DNA of 64,000 nt from Escherichia coli (GTDB taxonomy: Bacteria; Pseudomonadota; Gammaproteobacteria; Enterobacterales; Enterobacteriaceae). The notes under the pieces are model-generated. The model did not search any database, was not told where the DNA came from, and saw only the letters and a program-made list of their open reading frames with translations. The stretch lies in assembly GCF_044324785.1 (NCBI RefSeq), contig NZ_CP172127.1; one strand, given 5' to 3'. Made by a program: the position numbers and the translations under genes. Shown here piece by piece: positions 7,435 through 56,975 of the stretch (positions are counted from its first letter, which is position 1; each line of letters starts with the position of its first letter).

Positions 7435-7444
7435 GAATAAGAAC

Positions 7445-8191
7445 ATGTTGCTTAGCATAATCACTGTCGCGTTTCGTAACCTCGCAGGGATAGTCAAAAC
7501 ACATGCCTCGCTGGCGCATCTGGCGCAGGCGGACGATATCAGCCTCGAATGGATTGTTGTCGATGGCGGTTCCAACGACGGTACCCGTGAGTACCTGGAA
7601 AATCTCAAGGGTATCTATAACCTACGCTTTGTCAGCGAGCCAGATAACGGTATCTACGACGCCATGAACAAGGGCATTGCGATGGCACAAGGCAAGTTCG
7701 CGTTGTTTCTCAACTCGGGCGATATTTTTCATCAGGATGCCGCAAATTTTGTCCGTAAGTTAAAAGTGCAAAAAGATAACGTGATGATCACCGGCGATGC
7801 GCTGCTGGATTTTGGCGACGGGCATAAGATTAAACGTAGCGCCAAACCGGGTTGGTATATTTATCACAGCCTGCCCGCCAGTCATCAGGCGATATTTTTC
7901 CCGGTATCCGGCTTGAAAAAATGGCGTTATGACCTGGAATATAAAGTTTCTTCCGACTACGCGCTGGCAGCCAAAATGTATAAAGCCGGTTATGCATTTA
8001 AAAAACTCAATGGCCTGGTGTCTGAATTTTCTATGGGTGGGGTATCAACCACCAATAATATGGAATTGTGTGCTGACGCGAAAAAAGTCCAACGGCAAAT
8101 ATTACATGTGCCTGGCTTTTGGGCTGAATTATCCTGGCATTTACGCCAACGTACTACCTCAAAGACGAAAGCCTTATATAACAAAAGCTGA
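7445..8191 (+). CDS. wcaE: Colanic acid glycosyltransferase WcaE (GT2)
   Basis: 248 aa, matches K-12 WcaE. Confidence 0.9.
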
Positions 8192-8206
8192 ATATAAGGG
8201 AAAACG

Positions 8207-8755
8207 ATGCAAGATTTAAGTGGATTCTCGGTGCCGAAAGGGTTCCGGGGCGGCAACGCTATTAAAGTGCAATTATGGTGGGCAGTACAGGCAACAATAT
8301 TTGCCTGGTCGCCACAAGTATTGTATCGCTGGCGGGCTTTTTTATTACGTTTATTCGGGGCAAAAATAGGAAAAAACGTAGTTATTCGTCCGTCAGTAAA
8401 AATTACCTATCCGTGGAAATTAACCTTAGGTGATTACGCGTGGGTCGGCGATGACGTCAATTTATATACCCTCGGTGAAATAACCATTGGCGCACATTCG
8501 GTGATATCGCAAAAAAGTTATTTATGCACCGGTAGCCACGACCATGCAAGTCAACATTTCACCATTAACGCCACGCCTATTGTGATTGGCGAGAAATGCT
8601 GGCTGGCGACAGATGTTTTTGTTGCCCCTGGCGTCACGATTGGCGACGGCACCGTCGTGGGTGCACGAAGCAGTGTTTTTAAATCGCTTCCGGCAAATGT
8701 GGTTTGCCGGGGGAATCCCGCAGTGGTGATACGCGAACGCGTTGAAACTGAATAA
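8207..8755 (+). CDS. wcaF: Colanic acid acetyltransferase WcaF
   Basis: 182 aa hexapeptide-repeat acyltransferase, matches K-12 WcaF. Confidence 0.9.
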   Translation: MQDLSGFSVPKGFRGGNAIKVQLWWAVQATIFAWSPQVLYRWRAFLLRLFGAKIGKNVVIRPSVKITYPWKLTLGDYAWVGDDVNLYTLGEITIGAHSVISQKSYLCTGSHDHASQHFTINATPIVIGEKCWLATDVFVAPGVTIGDGTVVGARSSVFKSLPANVVCRGNPAVVIRERVETE

Positions 8756-8781
8756 ATTCAAAAAATACAGAGGAATAAGAC

Positions 8782-9903
8782 ATGTCAAAAGTCGCTCTCA
8801 TCACCGGTGTAACCGGACAAGACGGTTCTTACCTGGCAGAGTTTCTGCTGGAAAAAGGTTACGAGGTGCATGGTATTAAGCGTCGTGCATCGTCATTCAA
8901 CACCGAGCGCGTGGATCACATTTATCAGGATCCACACACCTGCAATCCGAAATTCCACCTGCATTATGGCGACCTGAGTGATACCTCCAACCTGACGCGC
9001 ATTTTGCGTGAAGTGCAGCCGGATGAAGTGTACAACCTGGGTGCAATGAGCCACGTTGCGGTTTCTTTTGAGTCACCGGAATATACCGCAGACGTTGATG
9101 CGATGGGTACGCTGCGCCTGCTCGAGGCGATCCGCTTCCTCGGTCTGGAAAAGAAAACCCGTTTTTATCAGGCTTCTACCTCTGAACTGTACGGTCTGGT
9201 GCAGGAAATTCCGCAGAAAGAGACCACGCCGTTCTATCCACGCTCTCCGTATGCGGTCGCCAAACTGTATGCCTACTGGATCACCGTTAACTACCGCGAA
9301 TCCTACGGCATGTACGCCTGCAACGGTATTCTCTTTAACCATGAATCCCCGCGCCGCGGCGAAACCTTCGTTACCCGCAAAATCACCCGCGCAATCGCCA
9401 ACATCGCTCAGGGGCTGGAGTCGTGCCTGTACCTCGGCAATATGGATTCTCTGCGTGACTGGGGCCATGCCAAAGACTACGTAAAAATGCAGTGGATGAT
9501 GCTGCAACAGGAACAACCGGAAGATTTCGTTATTGCCACCGGCGTTCAGTACTCCGTGCGTCAGTTCGTGGAAATGGCGGCGGCACAACTGGGCATCAAA
9601 CTGCGCTTTGAAGGCACGGGTGTTGAAGAGAAGGGCATTGTGGTTTCCGTCACCGGGCATGACGCGCCGGGCGTTAAACCGGGTGATGTGATTATCGCCG
9701 TTGACCCGCGTTACTTCCGTCCGGCTGAAGTTGAAACGCTGCTCGGCGACCCGACCAAAGCGCACGAAAAACTGGGCTGGAAACCGGAAATCACCCTCAG
9801 AGAGATGGTGTCTGAAATGGTGGCTAATGACCTCGAAGCGGCGAAAAAACACTCTCTGCTGAAATCTCACGGCTACGACGTGGCGATCGCGCTGGAGTCA
9901 TAA
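8782..9903 (+). CDS. gmd: GDP-mannose 4,6-dehydratase
   Basis: 373 aa, N-terminal [11 protein letters not shown]ossmann motif; matches E. coli Gmd. Confidence 0.95.
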
Positions 9904-9905
9904 GC

Positions 9906-10871
9906 ATGAGTAAACAACGCATTTTTATTGCTGGCCATCGCGGGATGGTCGGTTCCGCCATCAGGCGGCAGCTCGAACAGCGCGGTGATGTGGAACTTGT
10001 ATTACGCACCCGCGACGAGCTGAACCTGCTGGACAGCTGGGCGGTGCATGATTTCTTTGCCAGTGAAAGCATTGACCAGGTCTATCTGGCGGCGGCGAAA
10101 GTGGGCGGCATTGTTGCCAACAACACCTATCCGGCGGATTTCATCTACCAGAACATGATGATTGAGAGCAACATCATTCACGCCGCGCATCAGAACGACG
10201 TGAACAAACTATTGTTTCTCGGATCGTCCTGTATCTATCCGAAACTGGCAAAACAGCCGATGGCAGAAAGCGAGTTGTTGCAGGGCACGCTGGAGCCGAC
10301 CAACGAACCTTATGCCATTGCCAAAATTGCCGGGATCAAACTGTGCGAATCTTACAACCGCCAGTATGGACGTGATTACCGCTCGGTCATGCCGACCAAC
10401 CTGTACGGGCCACACGACAACTTCCACCCGAGTAATTCGCATGTGATCCCTGCATTGCTGCGTCGCTTCCACGAGGCGACGGCACACAATGCGCCGGACG
10501 TGGTGGTGTGGGGCAGCGGTACACCGATGCGCGAATTTCTGCATGTCGATGATATGGCGGCGGCGAGCATTCATGTGATGGAGCTGGCGCACGAAGTCTG
10601 GCTGGAAAACACCCAGCCGATGTTGTCGCACATTAACGTCGGCACGGGCGTTGACTGCACCATCCGTGAACTGGCGCAAACCATCGCCAAAGTGGTGGGT
10701 TACAAAGGTCGGGTGGTTTTTGATGCCAGTAAACCGGATGGTACGCCGCGCAAACTACTGGATGTGACGCGCCTGCATCAGCTTGGCTGGTATCACGAAA
10801 TCTCACTGGAAGCGGGGCTGGCCAGCACTTACCAGTGGTTCCTTGAGAATCAAGACCGCTTTCGGGGGTAA
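9906..10871 (+). CDS. fcl: GDP-L-fucose synthase (GDP-4-keto-6-deoxymannose 3,5-epimerase/4-reductase)
   Basis: 321 aa, matches E. coli Fcl (WcaG); immediately downstream of gmd. Confidence 0.95.
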
Positions 10872-10873
10872 TG

Positions 10874-11353
10874 ATGTTTTTACGTCAGGAAGACTTTGCC
10901 ACGGTAGTGCGCTCCACACCGCTTGTCTCCCTCGACTTTATTGTCGAGAACAGTCGCGGCGAGTTTCTGCTTGGCAAAAGAACCAACCGCCCGGCGCAGG
11001 GTTACTGGTTTGTGCCGGGAGGGCGCGTGCAGAAAGACGAAACGCTGGAAGCCGCATTTGAGCGGCTGACGATGGCGGAACTGGGGCTGCGTCTGCCGAT
11101 AACAGCAGGCCAGTTTTACGGTGTCTGGCAGCACTTTTATGACGATAACTTCTCCGGCACGGATTTCACCACGCACTATGTGGTGCTCGGTTTTCGCTTC
11201 AGAGTCGCTGAAGAAGAGCTGTTACTGCCGGATGAGCAGCATGACGATTACCGCTGGCTGACGCCGGACGCGCTGCTCGCCAGTGACAATGTTCACGCTA
11301 ACAGCCGCGCCTATTTTCTCGCTGAGAAGCGAGCCGGAGTACCCGGATTATGA
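10874..11353 (+). CDS. gmm: GDP-mannose mannosyl hydrolase (Nudix)
   Basis: 159 aa from ATG at 10874; matches E. coli Gmm/WcaH. Confidence 0.9.
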
Positions 11354-12573
11354 AAATACTGGTCTACGGCATTAACTACTCGCCGGAGTTAACGGGCATC
11401 GGCAAATACACCGGCGAGATGGTGGAATGGCTTGCGGCACAAGGTCATGAGGTGCGGGTTATTACCGCACCGCCTTACTATCCGCAGTGGCAGGTGGGCG
11501 AGAACTATTCCGCCTGGCGGTACAAACGAGAAGAGGGGGCCGCCACGGTGTGGCGCTGCCCGCTGTACGTGCCAAAACAGCCGAGCACCCTGAAACGCCT
11601 GTTGCATCTCGGCAGTTTTGCCGTCAGCAGTTTTTTCCCGTTGATGGCGCAACGTCGCTGGAAGCCGGATCGCATTATCGGCGTAGTGCCAACGCTGTTT
11701 TGCGCGCCGGGAATGCGCCTTCTGGCGAAGCTCTCTGGTGCGCGTACCGTGCTGCATATTCAGGATTACGAAGTGGACGCCATGCTGGGGCTGGGCCTTG
11801 CCGGAAAAGGCAAAGGCGGCAAAGTGGCTCAGCTGGCAACGGCGTTCGAACGTAGCGGACTGCATAACGTTGATAACGTCTCCACGATTTCGCGTTCGAT
11901 GATGAATAAAGCCATCGAAAAAGGCGTGGCGGCGGAAAACGTCATCTTCTTCCCCAACTGGTCGGAAATCGCCCGTTTTCAACATGTCGCAGAGGCCGAT
12001 GTTGATGCCCTTCGTAACCAGCTTGGCCTGCCGGATAACAAAAAAATCATTCTTTACTCCGGCAATATTGGTGAAAAGCAGGGGCTGGAAAACGTTATTG
12101 AAGCTGCCGATCGCCTGCGCGATGAACCGCTGATTTTTGCCATTGTCGGGCAGGGCGGCGGCAAAGCGCGGCTGGAAAAAATGGCGCAGCAGCGTGGACT
12201 GCGCAACATGCAATTTTTCCCGCTGCAATCGTATGACGCTTTACCCGCACTGCTGAAGATGGGCGATTGCCATCTGGTGGTGCAAAAACGCGGCGCGGCA
12301 GATGCCGTATTGCCGTCGAAACTGACCAATATTCTGGCGGTAGGCGGTAACGCGGTGATTACCGCAGAGGCCCACACAGAACTGGGGCAGCTTTGCGAAA
12401 CCTTTCCGGGCATTGCGGTTTGCGTTGAACCGGAATCGGTCGAGGCGCTGGTGGCGGGGATTCGTCAGGCGCTCCTGCTGCCCAAACACAACACGGTGGC
12501 ACGTGAATATGCCGAACGCACGCTCGATAAAGAGAACGTGTTACGTCAATTTATAAATGATATTCGGGGATAA
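11350..12573 (+). CDS. wcaI: Colanic acid glycosyltransferase WcaI (GT4)
   Basis: 407 aa, matches K-12 WcaI. Confidence 0.9.
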
Positions 12574-12575
12574 TT

Positions 12576-14012
12576 ATGGCGCAGTCGAAACTCTATCCAG
12601 TTGTGATGGCAGGTGGCTCCGGTAGCCGCTTATGGCCGCTTTCCCGCGTACTTTACCCCAAACAGTTTTTATGCCTGAAAGGCGATCTCACCATGCTGCA
12701 AACCACCATCTGTCGCCTGAATGGCGTGGAGTGCGAAAGCCCGGTGGTGATTTGCAATGAGCAGCACCGCTTTATTGTCGCGGAACAGCTGCGTCAACTG
12801 AACAAACTCACCGAGAACATTATTCTCGAACCGGCAGGGCGTAACACTGCACCTGCCATTGCACTGGCGGCGCTGGCGGCAAAACGTCATAGCCCGGAGA
12901 GCGACCCGTTAATGCTGGTATTGGCGGCGGATCATGTGATTGCCGATGAAGACGCGTTCCGCGCCGCCGTGCGTAATGCCATGCCGTATGCCGAAGCGGG
13001 CAAGCTGGTGACCTTTGGCATTGTGCCGGATCTCCCTGAAACCGGTTATGGCTATATTCGTCGCGGTGAAGTGTCTGCGGGTGAGCAGGATACGGTGGCC
13101 TTTGAAGTGGCGCAGTTTGTCGAAAAACCGAATCTGGAAACCGCTCAGGCCTATGTGGCAAGCGGCGAATATTACTGGAACAGCGGTATGTTCCTGTTCC
13201 GCGCCGAACGCTATCTCGAAGAACTGAAAAAGTATCGTCCGGATATTCTCGATGCCTGCGAAAAAGCGATGAGCGCCGTCGATCCGGATCTCGATTTTAT
13301 TCGCGTGGATGAAGAAGCGTTTCTGGCCTGCCCGGAAGAGTCGGTGGATTACGCAGTCATGGAACGTACGGCAGATGCTGTTGTGGTGCCGATGGATGCG
13401 GGCTGGAGCGATGTCGGTTCCTGGTCTTCATTATGGGAGATCAGCGCCCACACCGCCGAGGGCAACGTTTGCCACGGCGATGTGATTAATCACAAAACTG
13501 AAAACAGCTATGTGTATGCCGAATCTGGCCTGGTCACCACCGTCGGGGTGAAAGATTTGGTGGTAGTGCAGACCAAAGATGCAGTGCTGATTGCCGACCG
13601 TAACGCGGTGCAGGATGTGAAAAAAGTGGTCGAGCAGATCAAAGCCGACGGTCGCCATGAGCATCGGGTGCATCGCGAAGTGTATCGCCCGTGGGGCAAA
13701 TATGACTCTATCGACGCAGGCGACCGCTACCAGGTGAAACGCATCACCGTGAAACCGGGCGAGGGCTTGTCGGTACAGATGCACCATCACCGCGCGGAAC
13801 ACTGGGTGGTTGTCGCAGGAACGGCAAAAGTCACTATTGACGGTGATATCAAACTGCTTGGTGAAAACGAGTCCATTTATATTCCGCTGGGGGCGACGCA
13901 CTGCCTGGAAAACCCGGGGAAAATTCCGCTCGATTTAATTGAAGTGCGCTCCGGGTCTTATCTCGAAGAGGATGATGTGGTGCGCTTCGCGGATCGCTAC
14001 GGACGGGTGTAG
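12576..14012 (+). CDS. cpsB: Mannose-1-phosphate guanylyltransferase
   Basis: 478 aa, matches E. coli CpsB/ManC. Confidence 0.9.
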
Positions 14013-14113
14013 TAGTTGAATAATCAACCGGATTAATTCTCCGGTAAATAACGACAAAAACAAAATTGGCCGTTTCGGTCAGGGCCAACTACTGCCTGAA
14101 AAAGGGTAACGAT

Positions 14114-15484
14114 ATGAAAAAATTAACCTGCTTTAAAGCCTATGATATTCGCGGGAAATTAGGCGAAGAACTGAATGAAGATATTGCCTGGCGTATTGGG
14201 CGTGCCTATGGCCAATTTCTCAAACCGAAAACCATTGTGTTAGGCGGTGATGTCCGCCTCACCAGCGAAACCTTAAAACTGGCGCTGGCGAAAGGTTTAC
14301 AGGATGCGGGCGTCGATGTGCTGGATATCGGCATGTCCGGCACCGAAGAGATCTATTTCGCCACGTTCCATCTCGGCGTGGATGGCGGCATTGAAGTTAC
14401 CGCCAGCCATAACCCGATGGATTACAACGGCATGAAACTGGTGCGCGAAGGGGCTCGCCCGATCAGCGGCGATACTGGACTGCGCGATGTCCAGCGTCTG
14501 GCAGAAGCCAACGACTTTCCTCCCGTCGATGAAACCAAACGCGGTCGCTATCAGCAAATCAATCTGCGTGGCGCTTACGTTGATCACCTGTTCGGTTATA
14601 TCAACGTCAAAAACCTCACGCCTCTCAAGCTGGTGATCAACTCCGGGAACGGCGCGGCGGGGCCGGTGGTGGACGCCATTGAAGCCCGCTTTAAAGCCCT
14701 CGGCGCACCGGTGGAATTGATCAAAGTGCACAACACGCCCGACGGCAATTTCCCCAACGGTATTCCTAACCCGCTGCTGCCGGAATGTCGCGACGACACC
14801 CGCAATGCGGTCATTAAACACGGCGCGGATATGGGCATTGCTTTTGATGGCGATTTTGACCGCTGTTTCCTGTTTGACGAAAAAGGGCAGTTTATCGAGG
14901 GCTACTACATTGTCGGCTTGCTGGCAGAAGCGTTCCTCGAAAAAAATCCCGGCGCGAAGATCATCCACGATCCACGTCTCTCCTGGAACACCGTTGATGT
15001 GGTGACTGCTGCTGGCGGCACTCCGGTGATGTCGAAAACCGGACACGCCTTTATTAAAGAACGTATGCGCAAGGAAGACGCCATCTACGGTGGCGAAATG
15101 AGCGCTCACCATTACTTCCGTGATTTCGCTTACTGCGACAGCGGCATGATCCCGTGGCTGCTGGTCGCCGAACTGGTATGCCTGAAAGGGAAAACGCTGG
15201 GCGAACTGGTGCGCGACCGGATGGCAGCGTTTCCGGCAAGCGGTGAGATCAACAGCAAACTGGCGCAACCCGTTGAGGCAATTAATCGCGTCGAACAGCA
15301 TTTTAGCCGTGAGGCGCTGGCGGTGGATCGCACCGATGGCATCAGCATGACCTTTGCCGACTGGCGCTTTAACCTGCGCTCCTCCAACACCGAACCGGTG
15401 GTGCGGTTGAATGTGGAATCGCGCGGTGATGTGCCGCTGATGGAAGCGCGAACGCGAACTCTGCTGACGTTGCTGAACGAGTAA
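14114..15484 (+). CDS. cpsG: Phosphomannomutase
   Basis: 456 aa from ATG at 14114 ([14 protein letters not shown]...); TASHNP phosphoserine-loop motif; track ORF at 14066 is an upstream extension. Confidence 0.9.
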
Positions 15485-15538
15485 TGTCGGATCTTCCCTT
15501 ACCCCACTGCGGGTAAGGGGCTAATAACAGGAACAACG

Positions 15539-16933
15539 ATGACAAATCTAAAAAAGCGCGAGCGAGCGAAAACCAATGCATCGTTAATCTCTATGGTGCA
15601 ACGCTTTTCAGATATCACCATCATGTTTGCCGGACTATGGCTGGTTTGCGAAGTCAGCGGACTGTCATTCCTCTACATGCACCTGTTGGTGGCGTTGATT
15701 ACGCTGGTGGTGTTCCAGATGCTGGGCGGCATCACCGATTTTTATCGCTCATGGCGCGGTGTTCGGGCAGCGACAGAATTTGCCCTGTTGCTACAAAACT
15801 GGACCTTAAGCGTGATTTTCAGCGCCGGACTGGTGGCGTTCAACAATGATTTCGATACGCAACTGAAAATCTGGCTGGCGTGGTATGGGCTGACCAGCAT
15901 CGGACTGGTGGTTTGCCGTTCATGTATTCGCATTGGGGCGGGCTGGCTGCGTAATCATGGCTATAACAAGCGTATGGTCGCCGTAGCGGGGGATTTAGCC
16001 GCCGGACAAATGCTGATGGAGAGCTTCCGTAATCAGCCGTGGTTAGGGTTTGAAGTGGTGGGCGTATACCACGACCCAAAACCGGGCGGCGTTTCTAACG
16101 ACTGGGCGGGCAATCTGCAACAGCTGGTAGAGGATGCAAAAGCGGGCAAGATTCATAACGTCTATATCGCGATGCAGATGTGCGACGGCGCGCGAGTGAA
16201 AAAACTGGTCCATCAACTGGCGGACACCACCTGTTCGGTGCTGCTGATCCCCGATGTCTTTACCTTCAACATTCTCCATTCCCGTATCGAAGAGATGAAC
16301 GGCGTACCGGTGGTGCCGCTTTACGACACTCCGCTTTCCGGGGTTAACCGCCTGCTCAAACGTGCGGAAGATATTGTGCTGGCAACGCTGATCCTGCTGC
16401 TGATCTCCCCGGTGCTGTGCTGCATTGCGCTGGCGGTGAAACTCAGTTCATCTGGGCCGGTTATTTTCCGCCAGACTCGCTACGGCATGGACGGCAAGCC
16501 GATCAAAGTGTGGAAGTTCCGTTCCATGAAAGTGATGGAGAACGACAAAGTGGTGACTCAGGCGACGCAGAACGATCCGCGCGTCACCAAAGTGGGGAAC
16601 TTTCTGCGCCGCACCTCGCTGGATGAATTGCCGCAGTTTATCAATGTGCTGACCGGGGGGATGTCGATTGTCGGTCCACGTCCGCACGCGGTAGCGCATA
16701 ACGAACAGTATCGCCAGCTCATTGAAGGCTACATGCTGCGCCATAAAGTGAAACCGGGCATTACCGGCTGGGCGCAGATTAATGGCTGGCGCGGCGAAAC
16801 CGACACGCTGGAGAAAATGGAAAAACGCGTCGAGTTCGACCTTGAGTACATCCGCGAGTGGAGCGTCTGGTTCGATATCAAAATCGTTTTCCTGACGGTA
16901 TTCAAAGGCTTCGTTAACAAAGCGGCATATTGA
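15539..16933 (+). CDS. wcaJ: Undecaprenyl-phosphate glucose-1-phosphate transferase WcaJ (colanic acid initiating enzyme)
   Basis: 464 aa, N-terminal TM segments plus C-terminal sugar-phosphate transferase domain; matches K-12 WcaJ. Confidence 0.9.
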   Translation: MTNLKKRERAKTNASLISMVQRFSDITIMFAGLWLVCEVSGLSFLYMHLLVALITLVVFQMLGGITDFYRSWRGVRAATEFALLLQNWTLSVIFSAGLVAFNNDFDTQLKIWLAWYGLTSIGLVVCRSCIRIGAGWLRNHGYNKRMVAVAGDLAAGQMLMESFRNQPWLGFEVVGVYHDPKPGGVSNDWAGNLQQLVEDAKAGKIHNVYIAMQMCDGARVKKLVHQLADTTCSVLLIPDVFTFNILHSRIEEMNGVPVVPLYDTPLSGVNRLLKRAEDIVLATLILLLISPVLCCIALAVKLSSSGPVIFRQTRYGMDGKPIKVWKFRSMKVMENDKVVTQATQNDPRVTKVGNFLRRTSLDELPQFINVLTGGMSIVGPRPHAVAHNEQYRQLIEGYMLRHKVKPGITGWAQINGWRGETDTLEKMEKRVEFDLEYIREWSVWFDIKIVFLTVFKGFVNKAAY

Positions 16934-16934
16934 T

Positions 16935-18413
16935 ATGAGCTTACGTGAAAAAACCATCAGCGGCGCGAAGTGGTCGGCGATTGCCACGGTGATCATCATC
17001 GGCCTCGGGCTGGTGCAGATGACCGTGCTGGCACGGATTATCGACAACCACCAGTTCGGTTTGCTTACCGTGTCGCTGGTGATCATCGCGCTGGCAGATA
17101 CGCTTTCTGACTTCGGTATCGCTAACTCGATTATTCAGCGAAAAGAAATCAGCCACCTTGAACTCACCACGCTGTACTGGCTGAACGTCGGGCTGGGGCT
17201 TGTGGTGTGTGTGGCGGTGTTTTTGTTGAGTGATCTCATCGGCGACGTGCTGAATAACCCGGACCTGGCACCGTTGATTAAAACATTGTCGCTGGCGTTT
17301 GTGGTGATCCCCCACGGGCAGCAGTTCCGCGCGTTGATGCAAAAGGAACTGGAGTTCAACAAAATCGGCATGATCGAAACCAGCGCGGTGCTGGCGGGCT
17401 TCACTTTTACTGTGGTTAGCGCCCATTTCTGGCCGCTGGCGATGACCGCGATCCTCGGTTATCTGGTCAATAGTGCGGTAAGAACGCTGCTGTTTGGCTA
17501 CTTTGGCCGCAAAATTTATCGCCCCGGTCTGCATTTCTCGCTGGCGTCGGTGGCACCAAACTTACGCTTTGGTGCCTGGCTGACGGCGGACAGCATCATC
17601 AACTATCTCAACACCAACCTTTCAACGCTGGTGCTGGCGCGTATTCTCGGCGCGGGCGTGGCAGGGGGATACAACCTGGCGTACAACGTGGCCGTTGTGC
17701 CGCCGATGAAGCTGAACCCAATCATCACCCGCGTGTTGTTTCCGGCATTTGCCAAAATTCAGGACGACACCGAAAAGCTGCGCGTCAACTTCTACAAGCT
17801 GCTGTCGGTGGTGGGGATTATCAACTTTCCGGCGCTGCTGGGGCTGATGGTGGTGTCGAATAACTTTGTACCGCTGGTCTTTGGTGAGAAGTGGAACAGC
17901 ATTATTCCGGTGCTGCAATTGCTGTGTGTGGTGGGTCTGCTGCGTTCTGTGGGTAACCCGATTGGTTCGCTGCTGATGGCGAAAGCGCGGGTCGATATCA
18001 GCTTTAAATTCAACGTATTCAAAACCTTTCTGTTTATTCCGGCGATTGTTATTGGTGGGCAGATGGCGGGCGCAATCGGCGTCACGCTCGGTTTCCTGCT
18101 GGTGCAGATTATCAACACCATTCTGAGTTACTTCGTGATGATTAAACCGGTGCTCGGTTCCAGTTATCGCCAGTACATCCTCAGTTTGTGGCTGCCGTTT
18201 TATCTCTCGCTGCCGACGCTGGTGGTCAGTTATGCGCTGGGCATTGTGCTGAAAGGGCAACTGGCGCTGGGGATGCTGCTGGCGGTGCAAATAGCCGCGG
18301 GCGTGCTGGCGTTTGTAGTGATGATTGTGCTGTCGCGCCATCCGCTGGTGGTGGAAGTAAAGCGTCAGTTTTGTCGCAGCGAAAAAATGAAAATGCTTTT
18401 ACGGGCGGGGTGA
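16935..18413 (+). CDS. wzxC: Colanic acid repeat-unit flippase WzxC
   Basis: 492 aa multi-TM protein, matches K-12 WzxC. Confidence 0.9.
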   Translation: MSLREKTISGAKWSAIATVIIIGLGLVQMTVLARIIDNHQFGLLTVSLVIIALADTLSDFGIANSIIQRKEISHLELTTLYWLNVGLGLVVCVAVFLLSDLIGDVLNNPDLAPLIKTLSLAFVVIPHGQQFRALMQKELEFNKIGMIETSAVLAGFTFTVVSAHFWPLAMTAILGYLVNSAVRTLLFGYFGRKIYRPGLHFSLASVAPNLRFGAWLTADSIINYLNTNLSTLVLARILGAGVAGGYNLAYNVAVVPPMKLNPIITRVLFPAFAKIQDDTEKLRVNFYKLLSVVGIINFPALLGLMVVSNNFVPLVFGEKWNSIIPVLQLLCVVGLLRSVGNPIGSLLMAKARVDISFKFNVFKTFLFIPAIVIGGQMAGAIGVTLGFLLVQIINTILSYFVMIKPVLGSSYRQYILSLWLPFYLSLPTLVVSYALGIVLKGQLALGMLLAVQIAAGVLAFVVMIVLSRHPLVVEVKRQFCRSEKMKMLLRAG

Positions 18414-18483
18414 ATGGCTGTTTTCGGTTCCGGCAACGAAAACAACAACTAACCTCACCTGGCATCAAATTTATGAGGAAAAA

Positions 18484-19764
18484 ATGAAATTACTTATTCT
18501 GGGCAACCACACTTGCGGCAATCGTGGCGACAGCGCCATCTTGCGCGGCTTACTTGATGCCATCAACATCCTCAATCCACACGCCGAAGTGGACGTGATG
18601 AGCCGCTATCCGGTCAGTTCTTCCTGGCTACTCAACCGCCCGGTAATGGGCGATCCTCTGTTCCTGCAAATGAAACAACACAACAGCGCGGCGGGCGTTG
18701 TCGGGCGCATTAAAAAAGTCCTCCGTCGCCGCTACCAGCATCAGGTATTGCTCTCACGCGTCACTGACACTGGCAAGCTGCGTAATATCGCCATCGCCCA
18801 GGGATTCACTGACTTCGTGCGCCTGCTGTCAGGTTACGACGCCATTATTCAGGTCGGCGGATCGTTTTTTGTCGATCTCTATGGCGTGCCGCAGTTTGAA
18901 CATGCGCTTTGCACATTTATGGCGAAAAAACCGCTGTTTATGATTGGTCACAGCGTCGGCCCCTTCCAGGATGAGCAATTTAACCAACTGGCGAACTATG
19001 TCTTTGGTCATTGCGACGCGCTGATCCTGCGCGAATCGGTCAGCCTTGATTTGATGAAACGCAGCAATATCACTACCGCAAAAGTTGAACATGGCGTCGA
19101 TACCGCGTGGCTGGTCGATCACCACACCGAAGACTTCACCGCCAGCTATGCCGTTCAACATTGGCTGGACGTTGCCGCACAACAGAAAACGGTGGCCATT
19201 ACCCTGCGCGAACTGGCACCGTTCGACAAACGCCTCGGCACCACTCAACAAGCGTATGAAAAAGCCTTTGCCGGGGTGGTCAATCGCATTCTCGACGAAG
19301 GCTATCAGGTCATTGCGCTCTCCACCTGTACGGGCATTGACAGCTATAACAAAGACGACCGCATGGTGGCGCTCAACCTGCGCCAGCACATCAGCGATCC
19401 TGCCCGTTACCACGTAGTGATGGATGAACTCAACGATCTGGAAATGGGCAAAATTCTCGGTGCCTGTGAACTCACCGTCGGTACGCGCCTGCACTCGGCT
19501 ATTATCTCGATGAACTTTGCCACTCCGGCGATTGCCATCAACTATGAACATAAATCCGCCGGGATTATGCAGCAGCTGGGACTGCCAGAGATGGCGATTG
19601 ATATCCGTCATTTACTGGACGGCAGTTTGCAAGCGATGGTTGCGGATACCTTAGGCCAGCTTCCGGCGCTGAACGCGCGACTTAACGAAGCCGTCAGTCG
19701 CGAACGTCAGACGGGAATGCGGATGGTGCAATCTGTGCTTGAGCGCATCGGGGAGGTGAAATGA
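18484..19764 (+). CDS. wcaK: Colanic acid pyruvyl transferase WcaK
   Basis: 426 aa, matches K-12 WcaK. Confidence 0.85.
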   Translation: MKLLILGNHTCGNRGDSAILRGLLDAINILNPHAEVDVMSRYPVSSSWLLNRPVMGDPLFLQMKQHNSAAGVVGRIKKVLRRRYQHQVLLSRVTDTGKLRNIAIAQGFTDFVRLLSGYDAIIQVGGSFFVDLYGVPQFEHALCTFMAKKPLFMIGHSVGPFQDEQFNQLANYVFGHCDALILRESVSLDLMKRSNITTAKVEHGVDTAWLVDHHTEDFTASYAVQHWLDVAAQQKTVAITLRELAPFDKRLGTTQQAYEKAFAGVVNRILDEGYQVIALSTCTGIDSYNKDDRMVALNLRQHISDPARYHVVMDELNDLEMGKILGACELTVGTRLHSAIISMNFATPAIAINYEHKSAGIMQQLGLPEMAIDIRHLLDGSLQAMVADTLGQLPALNARLNEAVSRERQTGMRMVQSVLERIGEVK

Positions 19765-20981
19765 AGGTCGGCTTCTTCTTATTGAAATTCCCGCTGTCGT
19801 CGGAAACCTTCGTCCTCAATCAAATTACCGCGTTTATTGATATGGGCTTTGAGGTGGAGATTGTCGCGCTGCAAAAAGGCGACACCCAGAACACCCACGC
19901 GGCATGGACGAAATACAACCTTGCCGCCAGAACCCGCTGGTTACAGGACGAACCTACGGGCAAAGTGGCGAAACTGCGCCACCGCGCCAGCCAGACCTTA
20001 CGCGGCATTCATCGTAAAAATACCTGGCAGGCGCTCAACCTCAAACGCTATGGTGCCGAGTCGCGGAACCTGATTTTATCTGCCATTTGCGGCCAGGTCG
20101 CAACACCGTTTCATGCCGATGTCTTTATCGCTCATTTTGGCCCTGCGGGGGTAACCGCAGCAAAACTACGGGAACTGGGTGTCATTCGCGGCAAAATTGC
20201 CACCATCTTCCACGGCATTGATATCTCCAGTCGGGAAGTGCTCAACCACTACACCCCCGAATATCAACAACTGTTTCGCCGTGGCGATTTGATGCTACCG
20301 ATAAGCGATCTGTGGGCCGGAAGGCTGCAAAAAATGGGCTGCCCGAGGGAAAAAATTGCCGTATCGCGTATGGGCGTGGACATGACGCGCTTTAGCCCGC
20401 GTCCGGTGAAAGCGCCCGCAACGCCGCTGGAAATCATCTCCGTCGCACGCTTAACCGAGAAAAAAGGCCTGCATGTGGCGATTGAAGCCTGCCGTCAGTT
20501 GAAAGAGCAGGGCGTGGCATTTCGCTATCGCATCCTCGGCATTGGCCCGTGGGAACGACGCCTGCGCACCCTCATCGAACAATATCAACTGGAAGATGTG
20601 GTGGAGATGCCGGGCTTTAAACCGAGCCATGAAGTGAAAGCGATGCTCGACGACGCGGATGTCTTCCTGTTGCCATCGGTTACAGGTGCGGATGGTGATA
20701 TGGAAGGCATTCCGGTGGCGCTAATGGAAGCGATGGCGGTCGGTATTCCGGTGGTTTCTACTCTGCATAGCGGAATTCCTGAACTGGTGGAGGCCGATAA
20801 ATCCGGCTGGCTGGTGCCTGAGAACGATGCTCGAGCACTGGCGCAACGACTGGCGGCGTTTAGCCAACTGGACACCGACGAACTGGCTCCGGTCGTCAAA
20901 CGTGCGCGCGATAAAGTCGAACATGATTTTAACCAGCAGGTGATCAATCGAGAACTCGCCAGCTTGCTGCAGGCTTTATAG
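19761..20981 (+). CDS. wcaL: Colanic acid glycosyltransferase WcaL (GT4)
   Basis: 406 aa, matches K-12 WcaL; 4-nt overlap with wcaK. Confidence 0.85.
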
Positions 20982-20991
20982 AGGAGAACGC

Positions 20992-22386
20992 ATGCCATTT
21001 AAAAAACTCTCCCGACGCACCTTCCTGACGGCAAGTTCCGCGCTTGCCTTCCTCCATACCCCTTTTGCCCGTGCACTTCCCGCCCGACAAATCGTTAACA
21101 TTAACGACTACAACCCACACGACTGGATCGCCTCATTTAAACAAGCCTTCAGCGAAGGGCAAACGGTCGTCGTGCCTGCCGGATTGGTTTGTGAAAATAT
21201 CAACACCGGCATCTTCATTCCTCCTGGCAAAACGTTACACATCCTTGGAAGCCTGCGCGGCAACGGCAGAGGGCGTTTTGTCTTACAAGACGGCAGCCAG
21301 GTGACAGGGGAGAGGGGCGGCCGTATGCATAACATCACCCTGGATGTGCGCGGTTCTGACTGCACCATTAAAGGGTTGGCGATGAGCGGTTTTGGCCCGG
21401 TAACGCAGATTTATATCGGCGGCAAAAATAAACGCGTCATGCGCAACTTGACCATCGATAACCTGACCGTCAGCCACGCTAATTACGCCATTTTACGCCA
21501 GGGATTTCATAACCAGATTATCGGTGCCAACATCACCAACTGTAAGTTCAGCGACTTACAGGGCGACGCTATTGAATGGAATGTGGCAATTCACGACAGT
21601 GATATTTTGATATCCGACCATCTCATTGAGCGCATTAACTGTACCAACGGCAAAATCAACTGGGGCATCGGCATAGGCCTTGCGGGAAGTACCTACGATA
21701 ATAATTATCCGGAAAACCAGGCAGTGAAAAACTTTGTCGTGGCGAATATCACGGGATCAGATTGTCGGCAACTGATCCATGTTGAAAATGGTAAACATTT
21801 TGTTATCCGTAATATCAAAGCTCGTAATATCACGCCGGATTTCAGTAAGAAAGCAGGTATTGATAACGCCACAGTTGCTATTTATGGTTGTGACAACTTT
21901 GTGATTGATAATATTGAAATGATTAATAGTGCCGGGATGTTAATCGGCTATGGGGTAATTAAAGGCAAATATCTCTCGATACCGCAGAATTTCCGGGTGA
22001 ATAATATTCAACTGGATAATACTCATCTTGCTTATAAATTGCGCGGCATTCAAATCTCCGCCGGGAATGCTCTCTCCTTTGTGGCGCTGACTAACATTGA
22101 GATGAAGCGTGCCTCGCTTGAGCTACACAATAAACCGCAACACCTTTTTATGCGTAATATCAAGGTGATGCAGGAATCCTCAGTTGGACCCGCATTGAGC
22201 ATGAACTTCGACATGCGCAAAGACGTTCGCGGCGTGTTTATGGCGAAAAAAGAAACACTGCTATCTCTTGCAAATGTTCATGCGGTGAATGAAAAAGGAC
22301 AAAGCTCCGTCGATTTCGACAGGGTTAATCACCATATTGTTAATGTGGAAAAGATTAACTTTAGATTGCCGGAACGGAGGGAGTAG
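20992..22386 (+). CDS. wcaM: Colanic acid biosynthesis protein WcaM
   Basis: 464 aa with N-terminal signal-like sequence; matches K-12 WcaM; last gene of the cluster. Confidence 0.85.
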
Positions 22387-22543
22387 ATTTACGACCATTC
22401 ATAAACTTACTGGATATAATGTTCTAAAAGATTATAATCCTCACACTAACTGTTAAAGCTGGGACTGGGCAGCATTGACTACTCAGGGAAGGTACTCATC
22501 TTTATCTTGTGTTTCTTACGTAACAACCAGACTAAAGTGATTT

Positions 22544-23539
22544 ATGAACGATAACGTTTTGCTCATAGGAGCTTCCGGATTCGTAGGAACCCGACTACTT
22601 GAAACGGCAATTGCTGACTTTAATATCAAGAACCTGGACAAACAGCAGAGCCACTTTTATCCAGAAATCACACAGATTGGCGATGTTCGCGATCAACAGG
22701 CTCTCGACCAGGCGTTAGCCGGTTTTGACACTGTTGTACTACTGGCAGCGGAACACCGCGACGACGTCAGCCCTACTTCTCTCTATTATGATGTCAACGT
22801 TCAGGGTACCCGCAATGTGCTGGCGGCCATGGAAAAAAATGGCGTTAAAAATATCATCTTTACCAGTTCCGTTGCTGTTTATGGTTTGAACAAACACAAC
22901 CCTGATGAAAACCATCCACACGATCCTTTCAACCACTACGGCAAAAGTAAGTGGCAGGCAGAGGAAGTGCTGCGTGAATGGTATAACAAAGCACCAACAG
23001 AACGTTCATTAACCATCATCCGTCCTACCGTTATCTTCGGTGAACGCAACCGCGGTAACGTCTATAACTTGCTGAAACAGATCGCTGGCGGCAAGTTTAT
23101 GATGGTGGGCGCAGGGACTAACTATAAGTCCATGGCTTATGTTGGAAACATTGTTGAGTTTATCAAGCACAAACTGAAGAATGTTGCCGCAGGTTATGAG
23201 GTTTATAACTACGTTGATAAGCCAGACCTGAACATGAACCAGTTGGTTGCTGAAGTTGAACAAAGCCTGAACAAAAAGATCCCTTCTATGCACTTGCCTT
23301 ACCCACTAGGAATGCTGGGTGGATATTGCTTTGATATCCTGAGCAAAATTACGGGCAAAAAATACGCTGTCAGCTCAGTGCGCGTGAAAAAATTCTGCGC
23401 AACAACACAGTTTGACGCAACGAAAGTGCATTCTTCAGGTTTTGTGGCACCGTATACGCTGTCGCAAGGTCTGGATCGAACTCTGCAGTATGAATTCGTT
23501 CATGCCAAAAAAGACGACATAACGTTTGTTTCTGAGTAA
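22544..23539 (+). CDS. gne: NAD-dependent epimerase of the Gne/Z3206 type (UDP-GlcNAc or Und-PP-GlcNAc 4-epimerase)
   Basis: 331 aa SDR with N-terminal GASGFVG motif; location between wcaM and galF as in O55/O86/O157-type strains; GC content lower than flanking core genes. Confidence 0.8.
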   Translation: MNDNVLLIGASGFVGTRLLETAIADFNIKNLDKQQSHFYPEITQIGDVRDQQALDQALAGFDTVVLLAAEHRDDVSPTSLYYDVNVQGTRNVLAAMEKNGVKNIIFTSSVAVYGLNKHNPDENHPHDPFNHYGKSKWQAEEVLREWYNKAPTERSLTIIRPTVIFGERNRGNVYNLLKQIAGGKFMMVGAGTNYKSMAYVGNIVEFIKHKLKNVAAGYEVYNYVDKPDLNMNQLVAEVEQSLNKKIPSMHLPYPLGMLGGYCFDILSKITGKKYAVSSVRVKKFCATTQFDATKVHSSGFVAPYTLSQGLDRTLQYEFVHAKKDDITFVSE

Positions 23540-23781
23540 TGCAGACGAGTCAGAGAAAAAAGGACCAGGTTGGACTACGATTATTCGGAAAGAGGTACTG
23601 ATTAAATTATCAGTATGCGGAATTCCGAGTAATCCGAGTAACCCAGATGCTGATGGTGTGTAGTGTTATCCTAAGGTTTAAGCAAAGTTATGCGGAACTA
23701 AGCTTTGGTATATAGCCATAACGTTTGGCTAACCTATGGCAATAATTTACGCACTATCAGCCACTTAGAGGTAGGAAAAGA

Positions 23782-53262: not shown

Positions 53263-54321
53263 GTGCGTGCCGATAAGTCATTAAGCCCGTTTGAAATCCG
53301 GGTATACCGCCATTACCGCATTGTGCATGGTACTCGGGTCGCGCTGGCATTCCTGCTCACTTTTCTCATTATCCGCCTGTTTACTATCCCGGAAAGTACC
53401 TGGCCGCTGGTCACCATGGTGGTGATTATGGGGCCAATCTCGTTCTGGGGTAACGTTGTCCCTCGTGCCTTCGAACGTATTGGCGGTACGGTGTTGGGTT
53501 CGATATTAGGTCTTATCGCTCTGCAACTGGAGTTAATCTCGTTACCGCTGATGTTAGTCTGGTGCGCGGCGGCCATGTTCCTTTGCGGTTGGCTGGCGCT
53601 GGGCAAGAAACCGTATCAAGGTTTATTGATTGGGGTGACGCTGGCAATTGTTGTGGGTTCCCCGACAGGTGAAATTGATACGGCGTTATGGCGAAGCGGC
53701 GATGTGATCCTCGGTTCTTTACTGGCAATGTTGTTTACCGGTATCTGGCCACAACGGGCGTTCATCCACTGGCGCATTCAACTGGCAAAAAGTCTGACCG
53801 AGTATAATCGGGTCTATCAATCTGCATTCTCACCGAACTTACTCGAACGCCCGCGTCTGGAAAGCCATCTACAAAAACTCCTGACCGATGCCGTGAAAAT
53901 GCGTGGGCTGATTGCGCCCGCCAGCAAAGAAACCCGTATTCCAAAATCGATATATGAAGGTATCCAGACCATTAATCGCAATCTGGTTTGTATGCTGGAG
54001 TTGCAAATCAATGCATACTGGGCCACGCGCCCCAGCCATTTCGTGTTATTGAATGCGCAAAAACTTCGTGATACCCAGCATATGATGCAGCAAATACTGC
54101 TGAGCCTTGTTCATGCGCTGTACGAAGGTAATCCGCAGCCGGTTTTTGCCAATACGGAAAAATTGAACGATGCTGTGGAAGAGCTGCGTCAGTTGCTGAA
54201 TAACCACCATGACCTGAAGGTTGTGGAAACACCAATCTATGGTTATGTGTGGCTGAACATGGAAACGGCACATCAGCTTGAGTTGCTATCGAATCTGATT
54301 TGCCGGGCCTTGCGCAAATAA
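53263..54321 (+). CDS. yeeA: Inner-membrane protein YeeA (FUSC-like family)
   Basis: 352 aa (GTG start), matches K-12 YeeA. Confidence 0.85.
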   Translation: MRADKSLSPFEIRVYRHYRIVHGTRVALAFLLTFLIIRLFTIPESTWPLVTMVVIMGPISFWGNVVPRAFERIGGTVLGSILGLIALQLELISLPLMLVWCAAAMFLCGWLALGKKPYQGLLIGVTLAIVVGSPTGEIDTALWRSGDVILGSLLAMLFTGIWPQRAFIHWRIQLAKSLTEYNRVYQSAFSPNLLERPRLESHLQKLLTDAVKMRGLIAPASKETRIPKSIYEGIQTINRNLVCMLELQINAYWATRPSHFVLLNAQKLRDTQHMMQQILLSLVHALYEGNPQPVFANTEKLNDAVEELRQLLNNHHDLKVVETPIYGYVWLNMETAHQLELLSNLICRALRK

Positions 54322-54492
54322 TTCCTGAACTTCAGAATCATCTTGCTGCTGCTTCGATTCAGCAAGGATAAAGGGTATGATAGTGAAAAGGGATAAAAGC
54401 ATTGTCATCTGCGGCAGCTATGAGTAATGTTGGCCCTAACGAATAGCGGTTGCTTAAACGAATCCGACTCTCACATTATCAGGGGTATAAAA

Positions 54493-54822
54493 ATGGAAAC
54501 TACCAAGCCTTCATTCCAGGACGTACTGGAATTTGTTCGTCTGTTCCGTCGTAAGAACAAACTGCAACGTGAAATTCAGGACGTTGAGAAAAAGATCCGT
54601 GACAACCAGAAGCGCGTCCTGCTGCTGGACAACCTGAGCGATTACATCAAGCCGGGGATGAGCGTTGAAGCAATCCAGGGCATCATCGCCAGCATGAAAG
54701 GTGACTATGAAGATCGCGTTGACGATTACATCATCAAAAATGCCGAGCTCTCCAAAGAACGCCGCGATATCTCCAAAAAGCTGAAAGCTATGGGCGAAAT
54801 GAAAAACGGCGAAGCGAAGTAA
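54493..54822 (+). CDS. yeeX: UPF0265 family protein YeeX
   Basis: 109 aa from ATG at 54493 ([14 protein letters not shown]...); matches K-12 YeeX. Confidence 0.85.
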
Positions 54823-54922
54823 TTCCTGTTTTATTCAATGAGGGTTGCCTGGCAACCCTCATTGCTCATTGATTCTTTTCTGTGCATCACCGTCATCATT
54901 CTCATCTGAGAACCTGTCGAAA

Positions 54923-55195
54923 TTAGCGACAGCCTTCTTCTGTATGCAGCAAGGCTAAAAGTTCTGCAACTCCATTGTTATTAACCGCACTGGTTACTAA
55001 CACGTTGTGCGCTCCAGCTTCCCGTAACCAACATTTCACCAAAGATATTTGTTCCATGTTGGCTAAATCTGCTTTGGTTACTACTCCAATGACCGGGCGA
55101 TTCATTGACGAGGTAAAGCCTGGCGAAAAAGGGGACCACGGTGCGTCCGCATTAAGCACCAGGGCGATAATGTCCGCTTCGCAGGCGCTGACCAA
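54923..55195 (-). pseudogene. Remnant of a EutP/PduV-family GTPase gene (likely the yoeF-type pseudogene)
   Basis: 90-aa ORF resembling the C-terminal half of EutP/PduV (...[10 protein letters not shown]...); no N-terminal P-loop portion in frame; sits where E. coli retains only remnants of the pdu/cbi region. Confidence 0.5.
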
Positions 55196-55689
55196 CAGAG
55201 CACTGTAGAGGCTGCGGTTTTATCTGTGAGGACTGGCAGCAAGATTTCCAGCCTCTTGATGGTGGGCCTGTGCAATCGTTATCAGATGCGTATAGCGATT
55301 ATACAGTGCTGCTATTGATAGCAGCTGAAAGCGAGATATCCGTACCAGAATGGCTCGCTCATTCTGAAGGAACGACGGTAATTGTGATTGCAGAACACAA
55401 TGCCCGTTTGCTGACTGGTCCGGCTGGTGGGGCTGTAGCATTGATCCATTATCTGAATGAAATCTGTCATTCCAGAGAAACCGCTGTCAATGACGCATTT
55501 TGTCGTACGTTAACACGAGGAAGTCTGGCTATCCCGCAATGCCATCTTCTTTCGTAATGGATTGAGAATGCTGGATTTTTAATTATATTACGCGCAGTAT
55601 TAATCGCGTAAATGTTTTGCGGTCAGCAACGGTGGGGATCCATTGTTCTGTTCAATGAATACCATCATACAATTGAATCAGGAGTCGGT

Positions 55690-56235
55690 ATGATGATTTT
55701 GGTGACGGGGGGCGCACGGAGCGGGAAGAGTCGCCATGCAGAGGCGCTTATTGGGGACTCTTCACAGGTTCTGTATATCGCCACCTCTCAAATCCTTGAT
55801 GATGAGATGGCTGCACGGATAGAACATCATCGGCAAGGCCGCCCGGCGCACTGGCACACAGTGGAGCGCTGGCAACATCTTGATGAATTAATTCATGCAG
55901 ACATTAACCCGCATGAGGCTGTGTTGCTGGAATGCGTTACCACAATGGTGACTAATCTGTTGTTTGATTATGGCGGCGATAAAGACCCTGATGAATGGGA
56001 TTATCAGGCGATGGAACAGGCGATTAATGCTGAGATTCAGTCGTTGATTGCTGCCTGCCAACGTTGCCCCGCAAAGGTTGTATTAGTGACTAACGAAGTG
56101 GGAATGGGGATTGTGCCGGAGAGTCGTCTGGCACGACATTTTCGTGATATTGCCGGGCGGGTAAATCAGCAGCTGGCCGCTGCGGCAAATGAAGTGTGGC
56201 TGGTGGTTTCGGGTATTGGAGTAAAAATCAAATGA
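55690..56235 (+). CDS. cobU: Adenosylcobinamide kinase / adenosylcobinamide-phosphate guanylyltransferase
   Basis: 181 aa from ATG at 55690 ([15 protein letters not shown]-loop); matches E. coli CobU. Confidence 0.9.
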
Positions 56236-56975
56236 GTAAATTATTTTGGGCGATGCTCTCTTTTATTACGCGTCTGCCTGTGCCGCGTCGCTGGTCCCAG
56301 GGACTGGATTTCGAGCATTATTCTCGCGGTATTATTACTTTTCCTTTAATTGGTTTATTGCTTGGCGCGATTAGCGGGCTGGTCTTCATGGCGTTGCAGG
56401 CATGGTTTGGCGTACCACTGGCGGCACTGTTTAGCGTGCTGGTGCTGGCGCTTATGACCGGAGGATTCCACCTGGACGGCCTCGCCGATACCTGTGATGG
56501 CGTATTTTCTGCACGTAGCCGCGATCGCATGTTGGAAATCATGCGTGATAGCCGTTTAGGTACCCACGGCGGTCTGGCATTGATTTTTGTTGTACTGGCA
56601 AAGATTTTGGTGTTAAGCGAGTTGGCTCTGCGTGGCGAACCGATCCTTGCATCGCTGGCGGCAGCATGTGCGGTCAGCCGCGGGACTGCCGCATTATTGA
56701 TGTATCGTCATCGTTATGCCCGGGAAGAAGGGCTTGGCAATGTGTTCATTGGCAAAATTGATGGGCGACAAACCTGCGTCACACTCGGCTTAGCCGCTAT
56801 TTTTGCTGCCGTATTATTGCCGGGTATGCATGGTGTGGCTGCTATGGTGGTGACGATGATGGCGATTTTCATCCTCGGTCAGCTTCTCAAACGTACGCTG
56901 GGCGGGCAAACCGGCGATACGCTGGGAGCAGCCATAGAGCTTGGTGAACTGGTCTTCCTGCTGGCACTGCTATAA
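56232..56975 (+). CDS. cobS: Adenosylcobinamide-GDP ribazoletransferase (cobalamin synthase)
   Basis: 247 aa membrane protein from ATG at 56232 ([11 protein letters not shown]...); matches E. coli CobS; 4-nt overlap with cobU. Confidence 0.9.

Follow-up and report, generated by a model that had tools for sequence, protein, structure and literature searches.

The loss of the cob-pdu cluster from Escherichia coli is textbook knowledge, and Lawrence and Roth (1996) are said to have proposed a model of "loss and reacquisition." The polymorphism of pdu within E. coli has been published (PMC9997745). Salmonella bongori lost its cob-pdu cluster independently, and nothing but pieces of cobT and pduX, its terminal genes, was left behind (PMC3158058). 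In E. coli W and Crooks, the site between cobU and yeeX is on record as empty (PMC3032704).

Here, we analyzed the DNA between yeeX and cobU in a window of 64,000 nucleotides of E. coli (the whole stretch under study, from contig NZ_CP172127.1). A preliminary description of this DNA had proposed that two fragments in the interval were relics of the pdu and cbi operons that Salmonella retains. Our results support this interpretation and make it precise, in that the relics come from Escherichia's own pdu locus. Very probably, the interval is a noncoding relic, namely the scar left by a single deletion that took the propanediol-utilization (pdu) locus out of this E. coli lineage. It is a case of ordinary genome decay, already annotated, and belongs to known biology.

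The interval between tmaR and cobU

The interval covers positions 54823-55689 of the window, i.e., 867 bp, close to the ~870 bp previously given. It is flanked on the left by an intact tmaR (yeeX; 54493-54822, plus strand) encoding 109 amino acids with a DUF496 domain (Pfam PF04363, E=2.3e-45), a gene annotated as tmaR in strains N3, EC6622, and K-12. On the right lies an intact cobU (55690-56235, plus strand; 181 amino acids; PF02283, E=2.8e-64), also annotated in these three strains; cobS and cobT follow, and the whole of cobUST is intact in the window. When the interval was compared with complete E. coli genomes, some part of it was matched in 5,423 of 5,426, and strain N3 showed 99.2% identity.

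A fragment of pduV

The EutP/PduV-like C-terminal fragment placed by the preliminary description on the minus strand at 54923-55195 is indeed there. This open reading frame (ORF) matches PF10662 (PduV-EutP) with E=6e-24, in the C-terminal part alone (profile positions 59-142 of 143), and TIGR02528 with E=7e-23 (81.4 bits versus a cut-off of 138.35), so that neither family model is matched at full length. The homology runs past the end of the listed ORF, as far as the deletion junction at 55221 described below. The pseudogene fragment, pduV', accordingly spans 54923-55221 on the minus strand and holds the stop codon and the last 98 codons of the gene (residues 50-147 of 147). It is identical at 93 of 98 residues to the intact PduV of the pdu+ E. 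coli strain EC6622, which blastx also recovered from the interval (E=1e-64). In EC6622, pduV is a gene of 147 amino acids that stands tail-to-tail with tmaR.

The P-loop motif (GxxxxGK[ST]), which in the intact E. coli PduV reads GPSQCGKT at residues 8-15, is absent from the fragment of the window together with the rest of residues 1-49. Because the P-loop is lost, we expect no functional protein from pduV'. Judged by its sequence, it is a gene fragment and not a member protein of the EutP/PduV family. The automatic annotation (PGAP) already labels both fragments of the interval: in strain N3 the pduV' piece is given as "EutP/PduV family..., incomplete, missing N-terminus," and in strain 2013C-4282 the two are likewise annotated as incomplete genes.

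A remnant of cbiG

The 95-amino-acid ORF on the plus strand, which the preliminary description reported but could not place, runs from a GTG at 55270 to 55557. It corresponds to codons 51-145 of an Escherichia ORF of 145 codons that we name cbiG'. The homology of the window to cbiG' starts at codon 33, which gives a remnant at 55217-55557 (plus strand, codons 33-145; blastn, NF004463, and blastx), and the reading frame stays open between 55195 and 55557. The parent ORF (145 amino acids; P0001) consists of the first ~119 residues of CbiG, a cobalt-precorrin-5A hydrolase, followed by a short tail, and it shows 42-47% identity to residues 1-119 of the CbiG proteins of Citrobacter, Salmonella, and Klebsiella. 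The 144/145-amino-acid form is very common, with 1,277 member sequences in one cluster.

The NCBIfam model NF004463 (CbiG) matches the parent at positions 1-126 of 351 (E=1.7e-21, 76.8 bits versus a cut-off of 546) and the 95-amino-acid ORF alone at positions 54-125 (E=0.017), and it is the only one to recognize them: Pfam gave no match to either ORF even at E<=10. Salmonella CbiG carries all three Pfam domains (CbiG_N, CbiG_mid, and CbiG_C), and neither the ORF of the window nor its parent amounts to a full-length CbiG (~351 amino acids, with N, middle, and C domains). Searches of a large protein database with the 95- and 145-amino-acid queries returned just Escherichia and Shigella relics and no full-length CbiG; the full-length sequences were obtained via loci anchored on pocR and one Salmonella locus. 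With blastx, the interval matched residues 41-119 of Salmonella CbiG (35% identity, E=9e-7). The reference set for this search comprised 21 Salmonella proteins of one locus (L092; pocR, cbiA-cbiP, and cobUST), and both in the interval and in the EC6622 region from riboswitch to cobU it found CbiG alone among the Cbi proteins, the rest having E>0.1.

Could the 95-amino-acid ORF, or the versions of 111-119 amino acids in other genomes with the scar, be a functional small gene? The frame is open from end to end, PGAP annotates a "hypothetical protein" at this place in both N3 and 2013C-4282, and the parent cbiG' is open across species with a dN/dS of 0.30-0.48. The truncated ORF is still open at ~3% divergence from the pdu+ allele, and decay alone does not prove that it is dead. 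We nevertheless regard a functional gene as very unlikely. ORF starts and lengths vary among the genomes with the scar (95, 96, 111, 113, 116, 118, and 119 amino acids), Pfam finds no domain, and in most E. coli the region has been cut further, to a broken piece of ~48 codons. The dN/dS of the truncated ORF among E. coli scar alleles is uninformative, since each pair differs by just 6-14 substitutions, too few to show constraint. Moreover, the native start codon, the coupled upstream ORF (cbiA'), the B12 riboswitch, and the first 32 codons have all been deleted from the copy in the window. Without a start, a leader, or more than one of the three CbiG domains, the remnant is not expected to yield a functional protein. 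Instead of the intact conserved gene that could have overturned the preliminary description, the ORF is the 5'-truncated piece of a 145-amino-acid relic of the CbiG N terminus.

The junction of the two fragments

The comparison with the pdu+ allele of EC6622 (locus L006) suggests how the two fragments came to be adjacent. Positions 54400-55221 of the window align with 6466-7287 of this locus (97.6% identity, blastn), and positions 55217-56300 align with 24536-25620 (97.8% identity). The two segments overlap at 55217-55221, where blastn and a three-way alignment place a junction of 5 bp, GTTTT, common to the pduV and cbiG' sides; the pdu+ allele has this sequence at each of its two breakpoints, and the window has a single copy. 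The segment missing from the window, 7288-24535, amounts to 17,248 bp and contains the 5' part of pduV and everything from there through pduA, pduF, pocR, the B12 riboswitch, cbiA', and codons 1-32 of cbiG'. Two collinear flanks of a longer allele are therefore joined at a short common sequence, which is the pattern of a microhomology deletion scar.

Our account is one deletion between the GTTTT in pduV codon ~49/50 and the GTTTT in codons 33-34 of cbiG'. It would have brought the 3' end of pduV (minus strand) up against the last two-thirds of cbiG' (plus strand), and a single microhomology-mediated event of this kind would account for the whole interval. We compared the junction sequences of the window, N3, 2013C-4282, and EC6622. 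The six bases that follow the junction are ATCTGT in the window and GTTGGT in the pdu+ allele, and another strain with the scar reads ATTGGT at the same place. These differences suggest later point mutations rather than filler DNA, but they also count against the account just given, as the microhomology join in the lineage of the window is not perfectly clean. A probe of 201 bp across the junction was continuous in 201 genomes and split at query positions 98-102 in the pdu+ genomes.

The intact pdu locus and the direction of change

In EC6622 (NZ_CP096587), tmaR on the plus strand is followed by the pdu operon on the minus strand, in the order pduV-U-T-S-Q-P-O-N-M-L-K-J-H-G-E-D-C-B-A, and then, on the plus strand, by pduF, pocR, the riboswitch, cbiA', cbiG', cobU, cobS, and cobT. 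The pdu operon of Escherichia has pduV as its last gene and lacks pduW, pduX, and intact cbi genes; all that stands for the cbi operon are the relics cbiA' (an ORF of 44 codons, counting the stop) and cbiG' (145 codons). In EC6622, pocR (23043-23957 of L006), which encodes the activator of pdu, has an internal stop codon in an otherwise pdu+ strain. A complete pdu operon is thus no guarantee of inducibility.

The arrangement of pduF, pocR, cbiG', and the cob genes downstream of pduA is also found in E. albertii, E. marmotae, and an Escherichia sp. resembling E. whittamii. Since it occupies the same site in these species, the pdu+ riboswitch-cbiG' arrangement appears to be ancestral for the genus. 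The opposite direction of change would make the short interval an ancestral empty site, into which the pdu locus was inserted horizontally in the pdu+ strains. The patchiness of the pdu operon in E. coli, described as gained and lost repeatedly within ST372 (PMC9997745), is what such a history would lead one to expect. It is nonetheless highly improbable. The scar contains two truncated genes, the missing parts of which are found at either end of the pdu segment, and no insertion could complete a pair of genes on opposite strands; that E. albertii, E. marmotae, and the E. whittamii-like strain carry the full locus at this site also speaks against it. Given these truncated genes and the sister species, we infer that deletion from a pdu+ ancestor is the sole economical reading. 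It is possible that the whole allele was regained in some lineages by homologous recombination, in which case the scar would still be a derived deletion allele.

The cob genes have their own history of decay. In one E. albertii genome (GCA_024394735.1; L007, 6436-7900), the 5' part of cobU is lost (the aligned sequences part ways immediately past its start codon), and cobT is not called in the stretch from cobS to ldtA. At this locus, cobUST therefore seems to be decaying while pdu, pocR, and cbiG' persist.

Allele states in E. coli and the CP4-44 island

The junction of the window was found in 201 of the 5,426 complete E. coli genomes, which have an identical arrangement, as the alignment with prophage-free genomes proposed earlier has now shown. 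The deleted segment was present, at a coverage of at least 80%, in 638 genomes (about 12%), and the remaining ~4,600 have other locus states. One of these is a second scar allele, seen in E. coli 1504D004 (L005, 2501-2958) and similar genomes, where the gap between tmaR and cobU is 458 bp and window positions 54400-55099 are joined to 55504 onward with an overlap of 6 bp; this is an independent or secondary allele.

K-12 represents another state, also a derived one. As the preliminary description had pointed out, it carries CP4-44 and an IS5 copy at this place: the MG1655 feature spans 2066020-2078748, between cobU and tmaR, and measures 12.7 kb (L003, 5021-17749), including IS5H and IS2F. It had also noted that CP4-44 is missing here, and a blastn search of the 64-kb window with the 12.7-kb segment of K-12 gave 0 matches; none of the DNA of the island (flu, yeeR-S-T, cbeA/cbtA, IS5, and IS2) lies between cobU and tmaR. 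K-12-type genomes retain window positions 54400-55105 and 55386-56300, with CP4-44 and IS5 in between, and lack 55106-55385 (280 bp). Like the window, K-12 keeps a C-terminal piece of PduV, the last 60 codons of yoeF (b4538), which correspond to window positions 54923-55105, and a piece of cbiG' just upstream of cobU. The latter is shorter than in the window and broken (86% identity, 9 gap positions, and a premature stop).

The interval could then be conceived as what remained after a K-12-like CP4-44 island had been excised or deleted. K-12 and B have CP4-44 exactly between cobU and yeeX (PMC3032704), and both flanks of the K-12 island are subsets of the sequence of the window. But the window keeps the 280 bp absent from K-12, joined without a break to pdu+ sequence to the left and right of GTTTT, and a K-12-like ancestor could not have regenerated them. 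This excludes such an ancestor. The more decayed state of the cbiG' piece in K-12 and the absence of CP4-44 or IS5 sequence anywhere in the window point the same way, which leaves the excision of an island scarcely credible and deletion from a pdu+ allele as our preferred reading.

The K-12 genes at this site merit a remark of their own. The MG1655 yoeF (L003, 17576-17932), whose product is listed as "putative uncharacterized protein YoeF," is a chimera, with its first ~58 codons derived from the CP4-44 side of the junction. We considered yeeH as the K-12 piece of cbiG' and rejected it, as its coordinates put it just outside the homologous stretch. A literature search on yoeF and yeeH returned nothing relevant.

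Putative regulatory elements left in the interval

Two elements at the margins of the interval may have survived the deletion. The first is a hairpin with a perfect 13-bp stem at 54836-54864, between the convergent ends of tmaR and pduV' and immediately after the tmaR stop codon. Its predicted folding energy is -22.1 kcal/mol (z=-5.3), and 0 of 200 shuffled sequences were as stable. It is present in every allele examined, including the pdu+ and K-12 alleles (as a self-complementary blastn match). From its sequence and position, it is probably a bidirectional terminator of tmaR and pduV'.

The second is the spacer of 132 bp between the cbiG' stop codon and cobU (55558-55689, plus strand). Aligned among E. 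coli, E. marmotae, the E. whittamii-like strain, and E. albertii, it contains long stretches without a single change. It includes an inverted repeat, TTACGCG(N10)CGCGTAA (55588-55611), and the Shine-Dalgarno sequence of cobU, AGGAG (55680-55684). A promoter scan found one sigma-70-like site, TTGAGA-16-TATATT (55562-55589), versus 1.7 expected by chance, so that this site is no evidence by itself. The conserved spacer probably holds the promoter that now drives cobUST, or else an internal promoter/operator of cobU. The terminator hairpin and the promoter region upstream of cobU could plausibly still work in the interval.

The cobalamin riboswitch is gone: no Rfam match to RF00174 was found at E<=1 in window positions 54300-56300, versus 107.8 bits in EC6622, which served as the positive control. 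Hence, cobUST in this strain should escape the B12-riboswitch control present in pdu+ strains.

The cbiA' and cbiG' frames of pdu+ Escherichia

Outside the window, the relics raise a question of their own. In pdu+ Escherichia, the cbiA ATG kept downstream of the riboswitch opens the 44-codon relic ORF. Its TGA overlaps the ATG of the 144/145-codon cbiG' as ATGA, and cbiG' ends 132 bp before cobU (EC6622 L006, 24046-25009; L007, L009, and L010, around 5840-6435). Only the first ~15 residues of the cbiA' ORF match CbiA; the idea that its 3' part derives from the C terminus of CbiF gained no support from local alignment.

Neither cbiA' nor cbiG' is interrupted in E. coli, E. albertii, E. marmotae, or the E. 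whittamii-like strain. If substitutions fell at random along a star tree, cbiG' would have stayed free of stop codons in all four species with a probability of ~0.002. Its dN/dS is 0.30-0.48, versus 0.03-0.20 for pocR, pduF, and cobU. These values suggest that the cbiA' and cbiG' frames are under selection to stay open. One may wonder whether the relic is not junk but acts as a translational relay that passes riboswitch control on to cobUST by blocking Rho polarity, or as a CbiG N domain with an acquired role, a proposal that we find possible yet doubtful. If the relay were real, the lineage of the window would have lost riboswitch control together with pdu. Neither version concerns the truncated copy in the window, in which nothing would be novel.

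Implications

The deletion has consequences for the strain and some uses for the study of the locus. The source strain cannot use 1,2-propanediol via the Pdu microcompartment, and its cobUST salvage genes lack the B12 riboswitch that its pdu+ relatives keep. E. coli has several alleles in which pdu was lost independently, and the junction is a handy marker of the lineage that carries this one. In addition, the relics indicate that Escherichia once had a cob-pdu cluster where Salmonella has its own, an observation that bears on the model of Lawrence and Roth.

Comparison with known systems

Our survey of loci anchored on pocR came across further states of this region. In Hafnia paralvei ATCC 29927 (L060, 10900-12983), a full-length cbiG (an ORF of ~351-372 amino acids) lies directly downstream of pocR, without cbiA-F between them and without further plus-strand cbi ORFs, an order unlike that of Salmonella. 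The Enterobacteriaceae bacterium RIT691 (L068, 10999-12936) has a weak CbiG-N-like remnant directly after pocR, 32% identical to residues 3-74 of cbiG'. The next plus-strand ORF (340 amino acids) stands at the position of ldtA in Escherichia, with no cobUST-sized ORFs between; if it marks ldtA, cobUST has been lost there too, in yet another decay state of the locus. Some entries call for caution in their labels. A contig of a metagenome-assembled genome of "Citrobacter sp." (in the set L013, L073, and L046) has an E. coli-type pocR (96%) and cbiG' (95%) and is likely a database oddity. A contig of 383 bp from "Streptomyces cahuitamycinicus" with a 96%-identical PocR is probably contamination. 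Finally, in "Escherichia sp. MOD1-EC7003" the genes from cbiA to a full-length cbiG follow the order of Salmonella, up to the end of the contig, and the PocR is just 83% identical, which makes the genus label doubtful.

The closest counterpart of the window is the pdu+ locus of E. coli (EC6622, and also strains of the O127:H6 E2348/69 type). It occupies the same site with the same flanks, tmaR and cobU, and its retained parts have 97.6-97.8% nucleotide identity to the window, which differs in the absence of the central 17,248 bp. The scar of S. bongori is of the same kind, in a different lineage and with different breakpoints; there, cobUS was lost as well, whereas the window keeps cobUST intact. 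The cob-pdu region of Salmonella enterica (pduA-X, pduF, pocR, cbiA-P, and cobUST) has the same gene neighborhood and orientation. Its cob leader and riboswitch are 82% identical to those of pdu+ E. coli through the cbiA start codon, the PocR proteins of the two genera are 88-89% identical, and residues 1-119 of its CbiG are recognizably homologous to cbiG'. Salmonella has all 17 cbi genes as well as pduW and pduX, whereas Escherichia has only the relics cbiA' and cbiG' and a pdu operon that ends at pduV. The window has gone one step further and, with the exception of two fragments, has lost even these relics of Escherichia.
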